Shown piece after piece: positions 11,140 through 40,906 of a stretch of DNA of 64,000 nt. Numbering within the stretch: position 1 is the stretch's first letter; each line of letters begins with the position of its first letter. The DNA is from Giardia intestinalis (Eukaryota), in NCBI GenBank assembly GCA_000002435.2, contig CM018793.1; one strand, given 5' to 3'. The position numbers and the translations under genes are program-made. The notes beneath the pieces were generated by a model. It saw nothing but the letters and a program-made list of their open reading frames with translations. It made no database searches and had not been told where the DNA came from.

Positions 11140-11724
11140 ATGTTTTCTACAGCGGATGCCCTCGATATGGGGACCGACACTCAGCTGTCAGGTATCCGCA
11201 CAGACCTAATTAACGCCATGAATGCAAAGCCTCGGTATATCTTGAAGACGAATGCAAATATGGTTTCTTTCAAAGACATCCTCAGCGCCAGTGAGCAGGA
11301 CGGAAGCTACATGTATGCAGGTATTACGAAACCCGCAGACCGACTACTTGTCAGCCGTCTCCAACTTCATGACCAAGCTCTTTTGATTCACTCGGCCCCT
11401 GCACGCATGGCCGGGGCACATGCCATCGTGGAAGTTGCCGGACGGCCGCAAACATATTTCGATCTCAGTCTTCGACGGCAGGCCCATCGGGTTCCGCTCC
11501 GTTATATTCGAGCCTTACGACGAGTAATTCCACTCAAGCTCCTCGTTCAGGTTGGTCGAGAACTTGAGATAGAGCTATTCAGCGAAAAAAGACGACTGAC
11601 GATCGATCAAATTACGGAGGCTCAGTTTATAACATTGCTCAAGTTGGAGGAGAGCAGGGAAGAGGCAGATGGCGAGGCCACTAGACCGAGCGATAGCTCC
11701 TCACATAGCGATCTCAATTGTTAG
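11140..11724 (+). CDS. Hypothetical protein, 194 aa.
   Basis: Complete ORF whose 3' end overlaps the convergent GHMP-kinase gene by 24 nt. Confidence 0.45.
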   Translation: MFSTADALDMGTDTQLSGIRTDLINAMNAKPRYILKTNANMVSFKDILSASEQDGSYMYAGITKPADRLLVSRLQLHDQALLIHSAPARMAGAHAIVEVAGRPQTYFDLSLRRQAHRVPLRYIRALRRVIPLKLLVQVGRELEIELFSEKRRLTIDQITEAQFITLLKLEESREEADGEATRPSDSSSHSDLNC

Positions 11725-12780
11725 GTATCCATCGAAGGTATTGTCTGTAACAGCGGATGCTGTTATGCAAAGGAATGCATCATATCCTCCTGCTCCGACA
11801 CACATAGCACCCACAACCCTATCCTTGGCCATCAGCAGCTCGATAAGATCTGATATCTCCTTGGGCTCTATCTCTACTCCGTTCTCTGTAGAGAAGGACT
11901 TTTGAGCCTGCCGGTACTCTTGCAGCTGTTTCCGAATATCCTCGACTGAGCTCTTCTGGGCAACGAGGGCATTTATCAGGATCTCCGATGCCTTTATTAA
12001 ATGCTCATATGACTGTGTACTCCCATACGTTGATGTAAGCTTTTGCAGCTGCTTTGTCGTGGAGGTACCTCTATCGAGTTTGTGTTGGGGCTTGAGTAGG
12101 TAGAAGTGGAACTGTGGAAGCGACACTGACAGCGCCTTGGGAAGCTCATCTCCATGGGTTAGTATCTGCAACTGGGGCATGAGAGCAGACAGACACGAGC
12201 CTGACCGTGCAGCGTGGGCCAATTCACACACTTTTGAGTGATATTGACCGTTTTGCCTGTAAACTATTGGCACTTGACTTAGTACAGAAGCAACGTCGTA
12301 CCCGCTTGACTGACCCTGGACCAATAGGCAGCTGAAGTGGGCCAGGACAAAGGTCTCTGCTCCCCTGAGCTCGGCACCGATGCAGCTAGCGAGCTCCACA
12401 ATTGTACCAACAGTTACCATCGCTGATGATCCTATTCCCAGCTTTGCGCCAGGTGGCCTTGACTCCGATGTCCTCACTGTGATTTCCAATCTATCATGTT
12501 TTGTGCGTAGGTATGCTAGGAGTACAAGACAGGCTGTGCGGACAAAAGCGGTCTCGGGGTCCGATGCGGTATAAAGATCGGTCTTCTCAGCAGGAATCTC
12601 GACTGTGATAGACGACGCAGCCCGGGGGAGAACAAGTGTGATGAATCCGCGGCGCCCGGGGCCCACAGACACGATAACGTCCATGGTGGCAGACCTCACG
12701 GGCAGGGCGAGGCCGCAGCCCGCGGGGGCAAGCACTGCGTAGCCGCCGACGGCGAGGGTCTTCCCATGGAGACGCATCAC
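11701..12780 (-). CDS. GHMP-family kinase, most like an ERG8-type phosphomevalonate kinase, 359 aa.
   Basis: The N-terminal HGKTLAVGGYAVL resembles ERG8 GKxLLAGGYLVL. KLGIGSSAMVTVGTI matches the GHMP ATP-binding motif PxGSGLGSSAA. Confidence 0.6.
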   Translation of the reverse strand: MMRLHGKTLAVGGYAVLAPAGCGLALPVRSATMDVIVSVGPGRRGFITLVLPRAASSITVEIPAEKTDLYTASDPETAFVRTACLVLLAYLRTKHDRLEITVRTSESRPPGAKLGIGSSAMVTVGTIVELASCIGAELRGAETFVLAHFSCLLVQGQSSGYDVASVLSQVPIVYRQNGQYHSKVCELAHAARSGSCLSALMPQLQILTHGDELPKALSVSLPQFHFYLLKPQHKLDRGTSTTKQLQKLTSTYGSTQSYEHLIKASEILINALVAQKSSVEDIRKQLQEYRQAQKSFSTENGVEIEPKEISDLIELLMAKDRVVGAMCVGAGGYDAFLCITASAVTDNTFDGYLTIEIAM

Positions 12781-12839
12781 CTAATGCCACAATTCGGAAT
12801 GAGATATCACACCTGTCCCTTTTCTTGGGCTCAGGGCGC

Positions 12840-12922
12840 GCAACTTTGGCCGAGTGGTTAAGGCGCTGCGTTCAGGTCGCAGTGGGAGTCATCCCGCGTG
12901 GGTTCGAGCCCCACAGGTTGCA
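12840..12922 (+). tRNA. tRNA-Leu (anticodon CAG), type II with a long variable arm.
   Basis: Hand-folded. Acceptor stem GCAACTT/AGGTTGC, D-arm GCCGAGTGGTTAAGGC, anticodon stem CTGCG/CGCAG with loop TTCAGGT, a 15-nt variable arm, T-arm GTGGG-TTCGAGC-CCCAC and discriminator A. Confidence 0.8.
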
Positions 12923-12940
12923 CTTTGTCGCGCGCCACTT

Positions 12941-13375
12941 ACCATTACCTACCATTACCTACCATTACCTACCATTACCTACCATTACCTACCATTACCT
13001 ACCATTACCTACCATTACCTACCATACCTACCATTACCTACCATTACCTACCATTACCTACCATTACCTACCATTACCTACCATTACCTACCACCTACCA
13101 TTCCCTACCATTACCTACCATTACCTACCATTACCTACCATTACCTACCATTACCTACCATTACCTACCATTACCTACCATTACCTACCATTACCTACCA
13201 TTACCTACCATTACCTACCATTACCTACCATTACCTACCATTACCTACCATTACCTACCATTACCTACCATTACCTACCATTACCTACCATTACCTACCA
13301 TTACCTACCATTACCTACCATTACCTACCATTACCTACCATTACCTACCATTACCTACCATTACCTACCATTACC
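12941..13375. repeat. Decameric minisatellite (ACCATTACCT)n, about 43.5 copies over 435 bp, with two degenerate units near 13021 and 13091.
   Basis: The period-10 tandem array can be read directly in the sequence. The table ORFs covering it (HYLPLPTITY... in three frames) are translation artefacts of the repeat. Confidence 0.95.
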
Positions 13376-13383
13376 GAAAAAAG

Positions 13384-13456
13384 TGCCTGTGGTGAGGCTT
13401 GAACTCACGACCTATAGCTTATGAGACTATCGCTCTGCCGACTGAGCTACACAGAC
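13384..13456 (-). tRNA. tRNA-Met (anticodon CAT), elongator type.
   Basis: The reverse complement folds as acceptor GTCTGTG/CACAGGC, D-arm GCTC-AGTCGGCA-GAGC, anticodon stem ATAGT/GCTAT with loop CTCATAA, T-arm GTGAG-TTCAAGC-CTCAC and discriminator A. A T6 Pol III terminator follows immediately downstream on the coding strand (plus-strand A-run 13377-13382). Confidence 0.8.
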
Positions 13457-13514: not shown

Positions 13515-14096
13515 ATGCAGATGCAAGGGGCCGTCCGTGACGCACAGGCCAAGCCCTGCCGGTTCCACGAGTGCACGGGCTATTGCCGACACGGGACGGA
13601 GTGCCGGAATAGGCACGCGCTCTTCACAGACGGGCGAATGCTCATGCTCCGGAACATCATACCCCGGATCCAGCACAAGGACAAGGCCGAGCTCTACAAG
13701 TTCTACGACCATTGCTTCGAGGACATCTTCCTCCGCCTGGCGCAGCTCGGCCCCATGCAGGACTTCCTGGTAGCGGAGAACACGAACCATCTGGCAGGGA
13801 CGGTCTACGCACAGTATGCAAGCCAGGTGGCCGCGCAAGACGTGGCTTCTAAGCTATCTAATACATACTATGCTGGATTTCCGGTCAAAGCAGAGGTGAT
13901 AGGGGTGGAGAGCATCCATAAGACGCTCTGCAGGGACGAATATGCGTCGGGGAAGTCTGGGAGCAAGTGTGCCCATGGGCTCTCCTGCAGCTTTGTGCAC
14001 AAGTTCTTGCCCCAGCAGAAGATGTGGGAAGACATGAAGCTCCTCCTGGCCCCCAGCCAAAGGCAAGCGGGCTGTAGTCGTACCATTAAGAAGTGA
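13515..14096 (+). CDS. U2AF small-subunit (U2AF35)-like splicing factor with a C3H zinc finger, a UHM/RRM-like core and a second C3H zinc finger, 193 aa.
   Basis: CRFHECTGYCRHGTECRNRH resembles the U2AF35 N-terminal zinc finger. The central region shows spacing similar to the U2AF35 UHM. CRDEYASGKSGSKCAHGLSCSFVHK resembles the U2AF35 C-terminal zinc finger. Confidence 0.55.
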   Translation: MQMQGAVRDAQAKPCRFHECTGYCRHGTECRNRHALFTDGRMLMLRNIIPRIQHKDKAELYKFYDHCFEDIFLRLAQLGPMQDFLVAENTNHLAGTVYAQYASQVAAQDVASKLSNTYYAGFPVKAEVIGVESIHKTLCRDEYASGKSGSKCAHGLSCSFVHKFLPQQKMWEDMKLLLAPSQRQAGCSRTIKK

Positions 14097-14156: not shown

Positions 14157-17100
14157 TTGGAAACAATTGGCTGCGCTGAGATGCACCACCGCTCTGATTG
14201 CTTTTCCAACGGCGAGTCTTCCATTCATTTTGCGCGCGACGATGGCACTGTAATGAAGTACTCTGCGGAGTACCCCTTTCGGCCACTCGGACTTCTCAAG
14301 ACAGAAACCAGTTCTGGTGATCAGCAGCTCTGTGACATGCGCACTGTTGGAGACACTCTCTTCCTCATTTACATTAAAAAGACAGAACAGCAAGCAACAA
14401 CTATGACTATTGCCAATGATGTTAGTACTAAAATATCAACAATCACCATCATCACTCCTCATCCCGCATCGTCATTCACCATTTCACTTGATGATATGCT
14501 GAATCTACGGATAACCTTTATTAACGTTGACTCCAACGAAGATCGTGTTCTGGCATCCCACCGTGTCCAGATTGACTTACGAGAGCCGCTACTTGAATAT
14601 AATCTCGGGTTTGCGTTTTCCTCAGACTCTGCAGACTTCCATGTTGCACTCCCAGACTTTTATATATGTGATGTTTTAGCAACCAAAGACACCCTGGCTA
14701 TATTGTCGTCGTCATTTGTGATACTTTACAGTCTTGTTGACGGGTCACAAGACCCGATTCAGCTCTTTATTCCGGAAACAGACGTGTCTCGGGTGGATTC
14801 AGGTTATACTACCTTTGGAGGGATACAACATCCGTTGCTTCAGGCCTACAGGCTTTTCTATGTTGGGACGATAATACTTGTCCTCACGCCCAGTTGCCTT
14901 TATCAGATTGAGCACTTCTCTGACAATACAGTCAGTCTCACTGTGGTCTCTAAGATCTCAAATAGGATCTTAGCGTACACGGCAACAGATAGCTTATTTG
15001 CTCTTTGCACTTCTAGCTACACGGTCATGTTGCTGTTCATGCCTCCCGGAGCTGACTACTTGAGCATCAGTGTCTATAACATAGCTAATGATGTCAACAA
15101 TCGCCTTTTTAGTCTTTCTATGGACTACCTCGTCCAGGCTAGTCAGGCAAGTGAAGCAAGCTACCTAGAAAAACTCCCGTCCACCTGGCCAGCCACGCCT
15201 AATCCCCTAGGTCTGGCAATGGACAGGTATATGGACGGGCTTGTGACCAAAAGGTGTGTCAGAAGTGGGACAACTAACATCTTGTCTACATTTCCTTCAC
15301 GGCCTTCTCACAGTAACATCCGCATCTTGCTTGTTCCGCTGCAAGGAAAGGATTCTGTTCTTGTTACATTTGTTCATCTTGCTCCACCGTCTTCTCTTAC
15401 TAGCTCGTCTTCTGACTTTACGGTTGTCGGGTCCTTTATTCATGATCTATCCAGTGAGTCTGAGGGAGCTCGCTTGCAGCGCGTGGAGTCTCTCTCAAAG
15501 GCTGAAGCATCAGCATTTTCTGGTAAAAAGGATTCATTCTTCAAAGATTTATATGGCGGATTTTCCCCCTATGTGAAAATAAAAACCGGACCCGATGCTG
15601 TGGCAGCAATATCTGAGGGGTTATTTATCAATCCTTCTTACTTAAAAACCAAGCCGATTGCTTACTATCTCCACCTCCTTGTTAATATAAATGTTGCTAT
15701 CTGCATCGCGCTATCGAAGTTTCTTGTCACTAATTCTCATTTCAATAACATCAAGATGGTCAAGCATGCTAAGATGAGCATTCTTTACGACATCCTAACA
15801 TTACGGGATGACATGCTGCACCACCTTACTTCGGAATGGAACCACACCGTTGCTTTATCTACTCCTGCAGAGGACCCTCAGACACGCCTCCTGCTTTCTG
15901 CATATGGAAGCCAGGATGTGATGGGCCTCTATAGCCATTTGTATTATAGCCCAACCTCTGATCTTGGCCTTAACCCGCCATCGATTCACTCTGGGAATCG
16001 CTTGTTGACTGTATTTACGGTGGGGTTCACGAGTGGTCTGTCCATCTATGACTTGACGAAAGCACTATTACTTAAAGCAAGCCCTCGGCACTACACCAAT
16101 GCATTTACTACTATCGATACACTATCCCTTGCCGAATACACTTCCTCTTTTAGGCATAACGTCTTCTATGCGGAGTTTCGACTGGTTGCATGGTCGTTGT
16201 CGTCTTCCTACCGCACTACTTTGGGCGGAAGATGTTCTGAAAATATGCCTTGTCTGTCAGATAACTTTTTATTTGACAAGGGACCCCATTCAAAACTGGA
16301 CAAGAAACTGAATTGGCTACCTCTGACCTCGAACTCTGCTGTTCCACACGAGAGCGTTTACCTGGCTGGTGGCACATTACATCACACCATGTTTTTGAGC
16401 TCGTGTCATGTGCCCATGGAGACATCCATTCTCACGCCTTGCCCAGACTCGGTGGTAAGCGACATCAACCAATATGTCGTGAAGCTCCTCTCTGCCAACA
16501 TTAACGCTAGAAACTTTTATCTACCAAGGTTTTTCTATACTGGAATTACTACATCATCCGATGAGGCATCTAAGCGAAGCGTCGAAGAAGGGCAAGCTCA
16601 AACGAGCGCACCCAATGGACCTTCTGTTGATCAGAAGACCGTAAATAAGAATGCCCCTACTCAGAAACTCTATTGCAAGTTTGACCCCATCATTACACTT
16701 CGTGAGTTCACCAGGCGTTTCCTCCCCGACTTTGATCTTCTTATGTCCATTCTCTCATCTCTATTTGGCATTCTTCTAGACGTGGTTCGCACCCAAGGCA
16801 GCAGGGCTAAGTACATACTCCGCATGATTAGTTTGGATACGGTGTTCTTGGAGCTTACGTCTCTGAATGGATTTGGCGGCATGTATTACTTTGGAAAGGA
16901 TCTGGAAGCATCTCCGTACAGACTTAAGCTGCCCTTTTACACGCTAGGACCAGAAGCGTCCGCACTTTTTCCTAGCCGAGGAACTCTTCCTCCTCTATTA
17001 TCAGATTCGGCGCATATCAGCACTGAATATTATCCCTCCCTCTTGCTGACTGGGCTGGTGGCCCAGCTCTTCTTTGAGCTACTGCAGATCTACACGTCTG

Positions 17101-36839: not shown

Positions 36840-37216
36840 CCCTGCAAAGCCGCTAGCTGCACTGTTACTAGCGTCTCTCAGGACACCCTCTGCGGTGGCT
36901 GGGAAGTGGGCGCGGCTTGCCCGTGGGGCCTCTGAGCGCACCTGCAGGCGGGGCCAGCGATACAGTGACAGCAATGTACAGGAGTGCACCCCGAACAATC
37001 ACTCCACAAGAGAGGTGCGATCTGAGTCCGGCCCTCACTGGTCCTGTTCCTACTGAAGTCAGGGAAAACTACACTATCAGCTGGCCTCCGGTGGGTGTGC
37101 TCCTATCTTGTCCTTCTCCAGTCCAACTGATCGAGAAGAGCAAGAGCGGCTGTCTCTCACTGCTCGCGGCAACACACCAGCCTGACGGAAGAGCAGTGGC
37201 ACGTGTGCTCCGGCTA

Positions 37217-40200
37217 ATGTTGATAGGATTTCTCCTAGTTTGTGTGGTAACACGGGCAGAATGCGCCCAAAACCTGAAGGACGCGGGCTGCGAGACCTGC
37301 ACAGAGGCGGGCCCCAGCCAGACGTGCCTCACCTGTAGCGGTGGCCAGAAGGTGCTCCTCGACGGGAAGAGCTGCGGGGCCAATTGCCCGCCGAACTCTG
37401 TGGCCAGCCCGAACGTCTGCGAGTGCGACCAGGGATTCAGCCTGAACAGCGGGAAGGACGGCTGCGTGGCGGCCTCTAACACGGAATGCGCCCAAAACCT
37501 GAAGGACGCGGGCTGCGAGACCTGCACAGAGGCGGGCCCCAGCCAGACGTGCCTCACCTGTAGCGGTGGCCAGAAGGTGCTCCTCGACGGGAAGAGCTGC
37601 GGGGCCAATTGCCCGCCGAACTCTGCGGCCAGCCCGAACGTCTGCGAGTGCGACCAGGGATTCAGCCTGAACAGCGGGAAGGACGGCTGCGTGGCGGCCT
37701 CTAACACGGAATGCGCCCAAAACCTGAAGGACGCGGGCTGCGAGACCTGCACAGAGGCGGGCCCCAGCCAGACGTGCCTCACCTGTAGCGGTGGCCAGAA
37801 GGTGCTCCTCGACGGGAAGAGCTGCGGGGCCAATTGCCCGCCGAACTCTGCGGCCAGCCCGAACGTCTGCGAGTGCGACCAGGGATTCAGCCTGAACAGC
37901 GGGAAGGACGGCTGCGTGGCGGCCTCTAACACGGAATGCGCCCAAAACCTGAAGGACGCGGGCTGCGAGACCTGCACAGAGGCGGGCCCCAGCCAGACGT
38001 GCCTCACCTGTAGCGGTGGCCAGAAGGTGCTCCTCGACGGGAAGAGCTGCGGGGCCAATTGCCCGCCGAACTCTGCGGCCAGCCCGAACGTCTGCGAGTG
38101 CGACCAGGGATTCAGCCTGAACAGCGGGAAGGACGGCTGCGTGGCGGCCTCTAACACGGAATGCGCCCAAAACCTGAAGGACGCGGGCTGCGAGACCTGC
38201 ACAGAGGCGGGCCCCAGCCAGACGTGCCTCACCTGTAGCGGTGGCCAGAAGGTGCTCCTCGACGGGAAGAGCTGCGGGGCCAATTGCCCGCCGAACTCTG
38301 CGGCCAGCCCGAACGTCTGCGAGTGCGACCAGGGATTCAGCCTGAACAGCGGGAAGGACGGCTGCGTGGCGGCCTCTAACACGGAATGCGCCCAAAACCT
38401 GAAGGACGCGGGCTGCGAGACCTGCACAGAGGCGGGCCCCAGCCAGACGTGCCTCACCTGTAGCGGTGGCCAGAAGGTGCTCCTCGACGGGAAGAGCTGC
38501 GGGGCCAATTGCCCGCCGAACTCTGCGGCCAGCCCGAACGTCTGCGAGTGCGACCAGGGATTCAGCCTGAACAGCGGGAAGGACGGCTGCGTGGCGGCCT
38601 CTAACACGGAATGCGCCCAAAACCTGAAGGACGCGGGCTGCGAGACCTGCACAGAGGCGGGCCCCAGCCAGACGTGCCTCACCTGTAGCGGTGGCCAGAA
38701 GGTGCTCCTCGACGGGAAGAGCTGCGGGGCCAATTGCCCGCCGAACTCTGCGGCCAGCCCGAACGTCTGCGAGTGCGACCAGGGATTCAGCCTGAACAGC
38801 GGGAAGGACGGCTGCGTGGCGGCCTCTAACACGGAATGCGCCCAAAACCTGAAGGACGCGGGCTGCGAGACCTGCACAGAGGCGGGCCCCAGCCAGACGT
38901 GCCTCACCTGTAGCGGTGGCCAGAAGGTGCTCCTCGACGGGAAGAGCTGCGGGGCCAATTGCCCGCCGAACTCTGCGGCCAGCCCGAACGTCTGCGAGTG
39001 CGACCAGGGATTCAGCCTGAACAGCGGGAAGGACGGCTGCGTGGCGGCCTCTAACACGGAATGCGCCCAAAACCTGAAGGACGCGGGCTGCGAGACCTGC
39101 ACAGAGGCGGGCCCCAGCCAGACGTGCCTCACCTGTAGCGGTGGCCAGAAGGTGCTCCTCGACGGGAAGAGCTGCGGGGCCAATTGCCCGCCGAACTCTG
39201 CGGCCAGCCCGAACGTCTGCGAGTGCGACCAGGGATTCAGCCTGAACAGCGGGAAGGACGGCTGCGTGGCGGCCTCTAACACGGAATGCGCCCAAAACCT
39301 GAAGGACGCGGGCTGCGAGACCTGCACAGAGGCGGGCCCCAGCCAGACGTGCCTCACCTGTAGCGGTGGCCAGAAGGTGCTCCTCGACGGGAAGAGCTGC
39401 GGGGCCAATTGCCCGCCGAACTCTGCGGCCAGCCCGAACGTCTGCGAGTGCGACCAGGGATTCAGCCTGAACAGCGGGAAGGACGGCTGCGTGGCGGCCT
39501 CTAACACGGAATGCGCCCAAAACCTGAAGGACGCGGGCTGCGAGACCTGCACAGAGGCGGGCCCCAGCCAGACGTGCCTCACCTGTAGCGGTGGCCAGAA
39601 GGTGCTCCTCGACGGGAAGAGCTGCGGGGCCAATTGCCCGCCGAACTCTGCGGCCAGCCCGAACGTCTGCGAGTGCGACCAGGGATTCAGCCTGAACAGC
39701 GGGAAGGACGGCTGCGTGGCGGCCTCTAACACGGAATGCGCCCAAAACCTGAAGGACGCGGGCTGCGAGACCTGCACAGAGGCGGGCCCCAGCCAGACGT
39801 GCCTCACCTGTAGCGGTGGCCAGAAGGTGCTCCTCGACGGGAAGAGCTGCGGGGCCAATTGCCCGCCGAACTCTGCGGCCAGCCCGAACGTCTGCGAGTG
39901 CGACCAGGGATACACGCTCAACGCCGGAAAGACCGCGTGCGAGAAGGCCTCTAACACACAGTGTAATACTCCCAACTGCAAGATCTGTGATAACCCCAAA
40001 ACAGACAACGAAATCTGCACTGAATGTAATGATAACAATTACCTCACCCCGACAAAGCAGTGCACGCAGAGCTGCGGAGCAATAGGAAGCTACTACAACG
40101 GAGACAAAGTGTGCGAGCCTTGTGATTCTAGCTGTGCTGCGTGCACCACAACGGGACCAGCGAAGTGCACGCTGTGTCCTCCCGGGAAGAGGCTCCAGTA

Positions 40201-40906
40201 CACCAATGATGATCCTAGTCAAGGTGGATCCTGCGTAGATGAGTGCAAGCCCCAGAGTGGAGCTAGCGGATGCGAGACCTGCGGAGCCACCATCGGAGGG
40301 ACAAAGTATTGCTCGAAGTGCAGCACATCCACGGAGGTCCCCGTCAACGGAGTCTGTACAGCAGACAATGCCCGCGCGCCCGTATGCTCGAAAAAGGACA
40401 ATCAGGGAGGGTGCACTACGTGTGCCAGTGGGTACTTCCTCCAAGACGGCGGTTGCTATAAGACTGACAGACAGCCCGGTGAGCAGATATGCACACTAGC
40501 TGATAGCAATGGTGGATGTCAGACGTGCGCCAATAGTCTTCAGCCTAATAATGGAGCATGCCCTTCGTGTCACTCGACATGCAAGACATGTCGTGATGCT
40601 AATTCTGCAAATACTTGTACAACGTGTGCAACTGGGTACTACATGGTTGGATTAAATGCTGGGCCATGCACTTCGTGTGACAGCAACAGTGGAAGTGTCA
40701 AGGGAGTTGCTGGCTGCATGAGCTGCGCTCCTCCATCTAGCAATACTGGCTCCGTCCTCTGCTATCTCATAAAGGATACCGGTAGCACGAACAAGAGCGG
40801 CCTTTCTACCGGCGCCATCGCGGGGATCTCCGTGGCTGTCATCGTCGTTGTGGGGGGCCTTGTGGGCTTCCTCTGCTGGTGGTTCCTGTGTAGGGGGAAG
40901 GCGTGA
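37217..40906 (+). CDS. Variant-specific surface protein (VSP), 1,229 aa from the signal-peptide Met. It has a cysteine-rich ectodomain with many CXXC motifs, 12 tandem 75-aa repeats, a GGCY motif, a C-terminal transmembrane helix and the invariant CRGKA tail. The longest ORF begins upstream at 36917.
   Basis: The C-terminus reads ...GAIAGISVAVIVVVGGLVGFLCWWFLCRGKA*. GGCY is present (FLQDGGCYKTD), as are abundant CXXC motifs. The N-terminus MLIGFLLVCVVTRA is a signal peptide. AGTAAAC lies 8 nt after the stop. Confidence 0.9.
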   Translation: MLIGFLLVCVVTRAECAQNLKDAGCETCTEAGPSQTCLTCSGGQKVLLDGKSCGANCPPNSVASPNVCECDQGFSLNSGKDGCVAASNTECAQNLKDAGCETCTEAGPSQTCLTCSGGQKVLLDGKSCGANCPPNSAASPNVCECDQGFSLNSGKDGCVAASNTECAQNLKDAGCETCTEAGPSQTCLTCSGGQKVLLDGKSCGANCPPNSAASPNVCECDQGFSLNSGKDGCVAASNTECAQNLKDAGCETCTEAGPSQTCLTCSGGQKVLLDGKSCGANCPPNSAASPNVCECDQGFSLNSGKDGCVAASNTECAQNLKDAGCETCTEAGPSQTCLTCSGGQKVLLDGKSCGANCPPNSAASPNVCECDQGFSLNSGKDGCVAASNTECAQNLKDAGCETCTEAGPSQTCLTCSGGQKVLLDGKSCGANCPPNSAASPNVCECDQGFSLNSGKDGCVAASNTECAQNLKDAGCETCTEAGPSQTCLTCSGGQKVLLDGKSCGANCPPNSAASPNVCECDQGFSLNSGKDGCVAASNTECAQNLKDAGCETCTEAGPSQTCLTCSGGQKVLLDGKSCGANCPPNSAASPNVCECDQGFSLNSGKDGCVAASNTECAQNLKDAGCETCTEAGPSQTCLTCSGGQKVLLDGKSCGANCPPNSAASPNVCECDQGFSLNSGKDGCVAASNTECAQNLKDAGCETCTEAGPSQTCLTCSGGQKVLLDGKSCGANCPPNSAASPNVCECDQGFSLNSGKDGCVAASNTECAQNLKDAGCETCTEAGPSQTCLTCSGGQKVLLDGKSCGANCPPNSAASPNVCECDQGFSLNSGKDGCVAASNTECAQNLKDAGCETCTEAGPSQTCLTCSGGQKVLLDGKSCGANCPPNSAASPNVCECDQGYTLNAGKTACEKASNTQCNTPNCKICDNPKTDNEICTECNDNNYLTPTKQCTQSCGAIGSYYNGDKVCEPCDSSCAACTTTGPAKCTLCPPGKRLQYTNDDPSQGGSCVDECKPQSGASGCETCGATIGGTKYCSKCSTSTEVPVNGVCTADNARAPVCSKKDNQGGCTTCASGYFLQDGGCYKTDRQPGEQICTLADSNGGCQTCANSLQPNNGACPSCHSTCKTCRDANSANTCTTCATGYYMVGLNAGPCTSCDSNSGSVKGVAGCMSCAPPSSNTGSVLCYLIKDTGSTNKSGLSTGAIAGISVAVIVVVGGLVGFLCWWFLCRGKA
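37259..39958 (+). repeat. Intragenic tandem array of 12 copies of a 225-bp unit, each encoding a 75-aa, 10-Cys module (ECAQNLKDAGCETCTEAGPSQTCLTCSGGQKVLLDGKSCGANCPPNSAASPNVCECDQGFSLNSGKDGCVAASNT).
   Basis: Unit starts recur at 37259, 37484, 37709, ... 39734, an exact 225-nt period. Copies are identical apart from one substitution in copy 1 (GTG vs GCG, V/A) and divergence in the last ~60 nt of copy 12. Confidence 0.95.

Follow-up and report, generated by a model that had tools for sequence, protein, structure and literature searches.

The 459-bp spacer between two convergent tRNA genes of Giardia intestinalis WB, tRNA-Leu(CAG) on the plus strand and tRNA-Met(CAT) on the minus strand, is largely taken up by a minisatellite of 44 decamer units. 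We consider it likely that this is a young minisatellite of WB (assemblage A1) with no conserved function, placed between conserved, convergent Pol III genes, and that transcription of the tRNA-Leu gene ends at a run of three T residues (T3). The array itself is probably an ordinary tandem repeat, recently expanded and neutral. The locus is part of a contiguous stretch of 64,000 nucleotides (64 kb, hereafter the window), which is assigned to WB on the grounds that both ORFs flanking the tRNA genes are exact matches to proteins of WB/ATCC 50803. A previous, sequence-only reading of the window had called the two tRNA genes and the repeat, had expected Pol III to leave tRNA-Leu without terminating and to run through the array antisense into tRNA-Met, and had suggested a spacer, insulator or structural role for the repeat.

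A conserved pair of convergent tRNA genes

Within the window, ARAGORN predicts only two tRNA genes, and these are the pair described here (Table 1). Both calls and the head-on orientation given previously were borne out by ARAGORN and Rfam: each gene matches the Rfam tRNA model (RF00005) over its full length with a score above the gathering score of 29, and each folds into a cloverleaf with the correct anticodon loop. Moreover, when compared with the established consensus, both genes contain the internal A and B boxes of Pol III type 2 genes (A-box-like TGGCCGAGTGG and B-box-like GGTTCGAGCCC in tRNA-Leu; A box TAGCTCAGTCGG and B box AGTTCAAGCC in tRNA-Met; all read from the sequence). The discriminator of tRNA-Leu is the A at 12922, to which one extra C was added by ARAGORN. 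By the features that separate elongator from initiator tRNA-Met, the tRNA-Met(CAT) gene is an elongator and not an initiator, since the Rfam alignment gives a G1-C72 pair, an anticodon stem with no GGG/CCC and a normal GTTCAAG T-loop.

The pair lies between two protein genes. The upstream neighbour, encoding phosphomevalonate kinase, is divergent from tRNA-Leu and is syntenic in DH, P15 and GS_B; the downstream neighbour, whose record carries the name 'Splicing factor U2AF subunit, putative' (XP_001706703.1, G. lamblia ATCC 50803), is divergent from tRNA-Met and is syntenic in all lineages compared. The orthologous regions were retrieved via these flanking proteins, and the gene order phosphomevalonate kinase, tRNA-Leu(CAG) (plus strand), tRNA-Met(CAT) (minus strand) and U2AF is common to all four lineages (A1, A2, E and B).

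The tRNA genes themselves are nearly invariant. WB, DH and P15 carry the same tRNA-Leu(CAG) gene, from which that of GS_B departs at one position. In GS_B (contig L001, position 5782), a C stands at anticodon-loop position 33 (loop TCCAGGT), where WB, DH and P15 have U33, a residue that is near-universal in tRNA anticodon loops; the C33 may be an error of sequencing, and would otherwise mark an unusual variant of the tRNA. A second copy of tRNA-Met(CAT) is found on the same chromosome, adjoining Orc1/CDC6, and is identical to the first copy in P15 and one base different in DH. In the DH copy (contig L020, position 9987), the acceptor-stem A67 is changed to G, which gives a U6-G67 wobble.

Two further observations concern the surroundings. 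On the far side of the kinase gene, an EVE-domain gene (11140-11724, plus strand; domain identity backed by Pfam) is convergent with it, and the 3' ends of the two overlap by 24 bp (11701-11724), an arrangement that recurs in the gene calls of DH, P15 and GS_B. Elsewhere in the window, 12 near-identical tandem repeats of 225 bp (37259-39957, 99% matches) lie inside a 1,329-aa ORF (36917-40906, plus strand), which Pfam places in the Giardia variant-specific surface protein (VSP) family (E = 8e-95); it is a repeat-containing VSP gene, which is of a known kind.

Table 1. Features of the locus in the window, further tRNA genes on other contigs, and spacers between the convergent tRNA genes in the lineages compared
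Feature	Sequence	Coordinates	Strand	Basis or remarks
Phosphomevalonate kinase (GHMP kinase family)	window	11701-12777	-	ORF call; exact match KAE8304902.1, G. intestinalis WB; Pfam GHMP_kinases_N
tRNA-Leu(CAG), type II, long variable arm	window	12840-12923	+	ARAGORN; Rfam RF00005, 55.3 bits
TTT, proposed short, possibly leaky, Pol III stop	window	12924-12926	+	Starts at first base after tRNA-Leu 3' end (ARAGORN)
Unique spacer part GTCGCGCGCCACT	window	12927-12939		Alignment; common to A2, partly to E
(TACCATTACC)44 minisatellite, equivalent to (ACCATTACCT)n	window	12940-13375		Tandem Repeats Finder, pattern search, unit parsing
T6, canonical Pol III terminator of tRNA-Met	window	13377-13382	-	A6 on plus strand, directly 3' of gene
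tRNA-Met(CAT), elongator type	window	13383-13456	-	ARAGORN; Rfam RF00005, 66.2 bits
Putative U2AF small-subunit-like CCCH protein	window	13515-14096	+	ORF call; exact match XP_001706703.1
tRNA-Met(CAT) copy 2 and junction with Orc1/CDC6, DH	L020	9921-10003		
tRNA-Met(CAT) copy 2 and junction with Orc1/CDC6, P15	L023	6848-6931		
tRNA-Met(CAT) copy 2 and junction with Orc1/CDC6, WB-type	L002	5860-5942	-	
tRNA-Leu(AAG)	L024	962-1060		
tRNA-Leu(AAG)	L006	2838-2938	-	
Spacer, WB (A1)	window			459 bp; 44 units
Spacer, DH (A2)	L015			50 bp; about 3 degenerate units
Spacer, ERZ28528424 (ENA; independent assembly of A2 type)	L017			50 bp, identical to DH; about 3 degenerate units
Spacer, P15 (E)	L016			36 bp; no units
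Spacer, GS_B (B)	L001			34 bp; no units

The decamer array and its counterparts in other lineages

Tandem Repeats Finder describes the array as 436 bp with a period of 10, 44.0 copies, 97% matches and a score of 837, which confirms the repeat noticed previously and amends its figures, given then as about 43 copies over 435 bp. Parsed into units, the array consists of 41 perfect copies of TACCATTACC, in runs of 8, 6 and 27, and of three variants (TACCATACC at 13020, TACCACC at 13089 and TACCATTCCC at 13096). The 20-mer made of two units has 39 matches in the window versus 0 in 100 shuffles. The plus strand of the array is G-free, with a GC content of 40.6% versus 48.4% for the window, and GG tracts recur at regular intervals along its minus strand, 88 in all. 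No secondary structure was predicted for the array on either strand, the minimum free energy being 0 kcal/mol, the same as for shuffles. With head-to-tail units in the range of about 10-100 bp and a copy number that differs between strains (WB versus A2, E and B), the array is a minisatellite, or VNTR.

A telomeric nature was rejected on sequence, in agreement with the sequence-only reading: the telomere unit of Giardia is TAGGG, from which the present unit, TACCATTACC on one strand and GGTAATGGTA on the other, differs. That reading had also raised the question of whether arrays of this sequence occur beside tRNA genes at other places. The pattern search found no further array of TACCATTACC in the 64-kb window, and none was found in 185,579 bacterial and archaeal genomes. 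A single AT-rich metagenome, which is unrelated, yielded the only other occurrences, a pair of short arrays (5-11 units) that have no tRNA genes in their vicinity. A search of the literature for the literal repeat sequence found no mention of it.

The A2 spacer reads TTTGCCGCGCGCCACC TACCATTACC CGTTACC CACCATTGCC GAG AAAA, and with its units TACCATTACC / CGTTACC / CACCATTGCC it aligns unit for unit with the WB array trimmed to three units. We take this short A2 spacer to be real, because a collapsed assembly would not produce degenerate units and because two independent assemblies agree. Given that A2 has about three degenerate units, and E and B have none, the array would be a recent expansion in the WB lineage, which its 97% purity and the run of 27 identical units also fit. 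The same comparison argues against a conserved role as spacer, insulator or structural element, as had been suggested for the repeat, since the same convergent pair has spacers of 34-50 bp without the array elsewhere. An array serving as insulator or spacer would be conserved wherever the flanking units are, and this one is absent in E and B and vestigial in A2; in addition, neither strand folds. On sequence comparison, the absence in other lineages rules out a conserved function, and not a new effect specific to WB.

The length of the array in WB is that of a single assembly. In the Logan collection, short-read contigs of WB-type samples end or join chimerically inside the tRNA genes, and none of those recovered spans the array. 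Because the breaks fall in the multi-copy tRNA genes and not in the repeat, these contigs are uninformative on array length, either way. The chimeras join loci via tRNA-Met copies 1 and 2, or via the 5' half common to tRNA-Leu(CAG) and tRNA-Leu(AAG); such joins, and ends inside the tRNA genes, were located around 5869-5942 in L002/L003, around 2855-2938 in L006 and at the starts of L004, L005, L007, L018 and L019. Synteny near tRNA genes, when taken from Logan short-read contigs, is unreliable.

The 3' ends of the tRNA genes and the proposed course of events

The T6 directly 3' of tRNA-Met, which had been noted previously, is present as A6 on the plus strand, and this gene thus has the run of four or more T residues (T≥4) expected of a Pol III terminator. 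The run is T6 in WB only, being T4 in DH, P15 and GS_B, and the WB T6 differs from the A2 T4 by a single G-to-A change (GAGAAAAG to GAAAAAAG). The tRNA-Leu gene has T3 only. Its final C is followed by TTTGTCGCG, the TTT in that position is the only plus-strand T-run of three or more before 13492, and the first T≥4 on this strand lies at 14202, 1,278 nt away. The lack of a T≥4 that the sequence-only reading reported for tRNA-Leu therefore stands, whereas the TTT had been left unweighed there; and, as the sequences below suggest, the T≥4 criterion itself may not apply to Giardia. In the orthologues, the final C of tRNA-Leu(CAG) is followed by TTTG in A1, A2 and E and by GTTTC in B, that is, T3 stands at offset 0 or 1 in DH, P15 and GS_B too, and no alignment between A and B is possible for the remainder of the spacer.

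Two further tRNA loci, exposed by the chimeric Logan contigs and then confirmed in proper assemblies, end in a similar manner. Copy 2 of tRNA-Met(CAT) immediately precedes Orc1/CDC6 and shares its strand, the start codon coming 6-8 nt after the tRNA with only TTT between; its final C is followed by TTTGTC and then ATG in WB and DH (6 nt), and by TTTGCCC and then ATG in P15. Judging by this placement, the tRNA gene occupies the usual place of a Giardia promoter, and co-transcription of tRNA and mRNA, or promoter sharing, is possible. The tRNA-Leu(AAG) gene lies 12 nt upstream of the same-strand ATG of the ataxin-10-domain gene GL50803_16641, and its final C is followed by GTTTCCG(A/G)CCCA, in which T3 is the only T-run. 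Gene callers have extended the GL50803_16641 ORF through tRNA-Leu(AAG), which resulted in versions of 470-503 aa.

Altogether, a T-run of at least three starts 0-1 nt past the ARAGORN 3' end at four of four independent Giardia tRNA loci, and in three of the four it is T3 only; these four come from several dozen tRNA loci in the genome and are too few for a rule. With TTT at about 1.8% of the positions in the window, such a placement is far from what chance would give (as a rough product, 0.036 to the fourth power, the chance expectation is near 2e-6 for four of four). Going by position and conservation, a T3 beside the gene is probably the usual, perhaps leaky, Pol III stop of Giardia. The broader proposition, that Giardia Pol III normally stops at a bare T3 one or two bases past the tRNA, or stops inefficiently with downstream co-transcription, is a doubtful one at present. 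If the T3 stop were true, no shorter terminator would be known from any eukaryote. If the inefficient stop were true, tRNA genes would be co-transcribed with any sequence downstream, including the same-strand Orc1/CDC6 and ataxin-10-domain mRNAs, which start 6-12 nt further on. Read-through would then have a natural reporter in the WB array, 436 nt long and G-free, and antisense tRNA would arise from the convergent pair. Several Giardia tRNA genes with TTT as the sole 3' signal raise the question of how a divergent Pol III terminates, and the T3-only tRNA genes, some of them 6-12 nt before same-strand ORFs (four loci), are the only part that might be worth pursuing. A literature search on Giardia Pol III terminators or tRNA trailers found nothing relevant; the Pol III apparatus of Giardia is described as divergent, with TFIIIC and TFIIIA not identified (PMC3369914).

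For the locus as a whole, we propose the following course of events. The ancestor of assemblage A would have had about three imperfect TACCATTACC-like units in the spacer, as A2 still has, and in WB one unit would have been amplified and homogenised to 44 copies by replication slippage or unequal exchange. Speculatively, the expansion may have been helped by replication forks that met the opposed transcription complexes of the two tRNA genes head-on and stalled there. Transcription of tRNA-Leu would end at the TTT at +1 or +2, as it would in the orthologues and in at least two other Giardia tRNA genes, and cleavage by tRNase Z followed by addition of CCA would give the mature 3' end, as is established for tRNAs. 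A polymerase that escapes T3 in WB would add a G-free, unstructured 3' extension and would then collide with the tRNA-Met complex; in the other lineages, the same collision would follow after 34-50 bp. Since escape and collision would thus occur elsewhere without it, the array would be neither needed for a special arrangement nor a sign of one.

Alternative readings of the array

The reading given previously, in which tRNA-Leu has no terminator, Pol III crosses the array and enters tRNA-Met antisense, and the part played by the repeat is that of spacer, insulator or structural element, appears improbable to us. It can call on the 1,278 nt past tRNA-Leu in which no plus-strand T≥4 occurs, on the 436 bp that the array adds between the two genes, and on a sequence free of T-runs and of G that would let the polymerase through unhindered. 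In addition, Giardia may lack C53, which promotes termination in yeast (PMC3369914); the presence of the C37/C53 termination subunits in Giardia is disputed, with C53 given as absent (PMC3369914) and as present (PMC1540719), and read-through could be commoner than assumed if C37/C53 are truly absent. However, the expectation of read-through is weak in that it applies to Giardia a T≥4 rule taken from vertebrates and yeast, while each of the four lineages has a TTT after tRNA-Leu, and two ORF-abutting tRNA genes have no signal other than T3. The spacer is evidently not required, as the pair exists with 34-50 bp and no array in A2, E and B, and the array is unfolded on both strands. A more restricted version would have the array expressed with a function specific to WB, for instance as a source of small RNAs arising by read-through or by convergent transcription, or as a protein-binding or G-tract element, (GGTAATGGTA)n on the minus strand, that acts on the neighbouring genes. 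The 88 regular GG tracts on that strand, and the overlapping transcripts that convergence could give if T3 leaks, would suit it; the absence of both conservation and fold, the T6 of tRNA-Met, which should block entry from that side, and a sequence without published mention that recurs only as two short metagenome arrays without tRNA genes make it quite improbable.

It could also be asked whether the array is real. Were the 44 copies an assembly artefact and the true WB spacer short like that of A2, one would expect what is indeed the case, namely that the array is seen in one assembly only, that no recovered short-read contig spans it, and that its translation lacks a close match in the protein collection. 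Yet unique sequence continues without a break from either end of the array and shows the correct synteny, its three distinct variant units stand at fixed places, which is not expected from an assembler loop, the corresponding position in A2, the sister lineage, holds the seed sequence, and the short-read contigs break within the multi-copy tRNA genes and not in the repeat, so that an artefact is highly improbable. Finally, the repeat could encode a peptide, (LPLPTITYHY)n, as all three plus-strand frames are open, the ORF listing contains ORFs of 165-199 aa and no plus frame of the array has a single stop codon. This openness follows from a G-free strand, which excludes TAG and TGA, and from a unit with no TAA; the ORFs begin inside tRNA-Leu and finish inside tRNA-Met (12825-13424, plus strand), A2, E and B lack the repeat, and no homologue was found among 5.8 billion clusters beyond weak low-complexity matches. 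The coding potential was rejected as artefactual ORFs arising from composition, and we give it a negligible chance. On the minus strand, each frame of the array is interrupted by 28 stop codons.

A candidate marker and comparison with known systems

Taken as a young minisatellite of WB, the array may be of practical use. Sub-assemblages of Giardia are typed with a small number of genes that evolve slowly, and a literature search turned up no minisatellite that serves as a marker in this organism. The previous suggestion of a length-polymorphic marker holds between lineages, with 44 units in A1 versus about 3 in the two A2 assemblies and none in E and B. Given this great difference between A1 and A2, and the conserved flanking genes in which primers could be placed, the locus could be a simple PCR marker, and the array is a plausible candidate for the typing of A1.

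In its make-up, the array resembles ordinary minisatellites or VNTRs, which likewise show head-to-tail units (here of 10 bp), high purity, few variants, a seed in a sister lineage and large differences in copy number. It differs from them in nothing essential and is peculiar only in its siting between convergent Pol III genes and in its G-free strand. In yeast and human, tRNA genes act as chromatin insulators or replication-fork barriers, and the present locus is similar to such systems insofar as two Pol III complexes flank the array, with fork pausing as a plausible driver of repeat instability. In those systems, however, it is the tRNA gene itself that acts, and not an intervening repeat.

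With regard to termination, no T≥4 is present within 50 bp of many human tRNA genes, whose degenerate terminators allow partial read-through (Orioli et al. 2011, PMC3141230), and Pol III of yeast also gives rise to read-through products, which nuclear surveillance removes (Turowski et al. 2016, PMC4937561). Read-through is tolerated there, the 3' end being made by processing and the extended forms degraded (PMC3141230, PMC4937561). The tRNA-Leu gene is like these weak terminators in having no nearby T≥4 and in the possibility of long 3' trailers. Unlike the human non-canonical signals, which resemble degenerate forms of T≥5, the Giardia candidate is a bare T3 right after the gene, apparently a common arrangement in this organism, with three of the four loci seen.

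The closest analogue described is that of the tRNA-linked short tandem repeats of Entamoeba, on which Clark et al. reportedly published in 2006. These repeats separate neighbouring tRNA genes, differ in length from strain to strain and are widely used in genotyping (Tawari et al. 2008, PMC2652664); the unit of tRNA genes plus repeat is reiterated there in 25 kinds of large tandem arrays, which account for over 10% of the genome and for which a structural role has been proposed (PMC2652664). The Giardia locus shares with them a short tandem repeat between adjacent tRNA genes of an intestinal protist, with a length that differs between strains. It is unlike them in that no reiterated unit of tRNA genes plus repeat is seen, the window having two tRNA genes and one array, and in that the locus is single-copy between unique protein genes, with a homogeneous decamer present in one lineage only.
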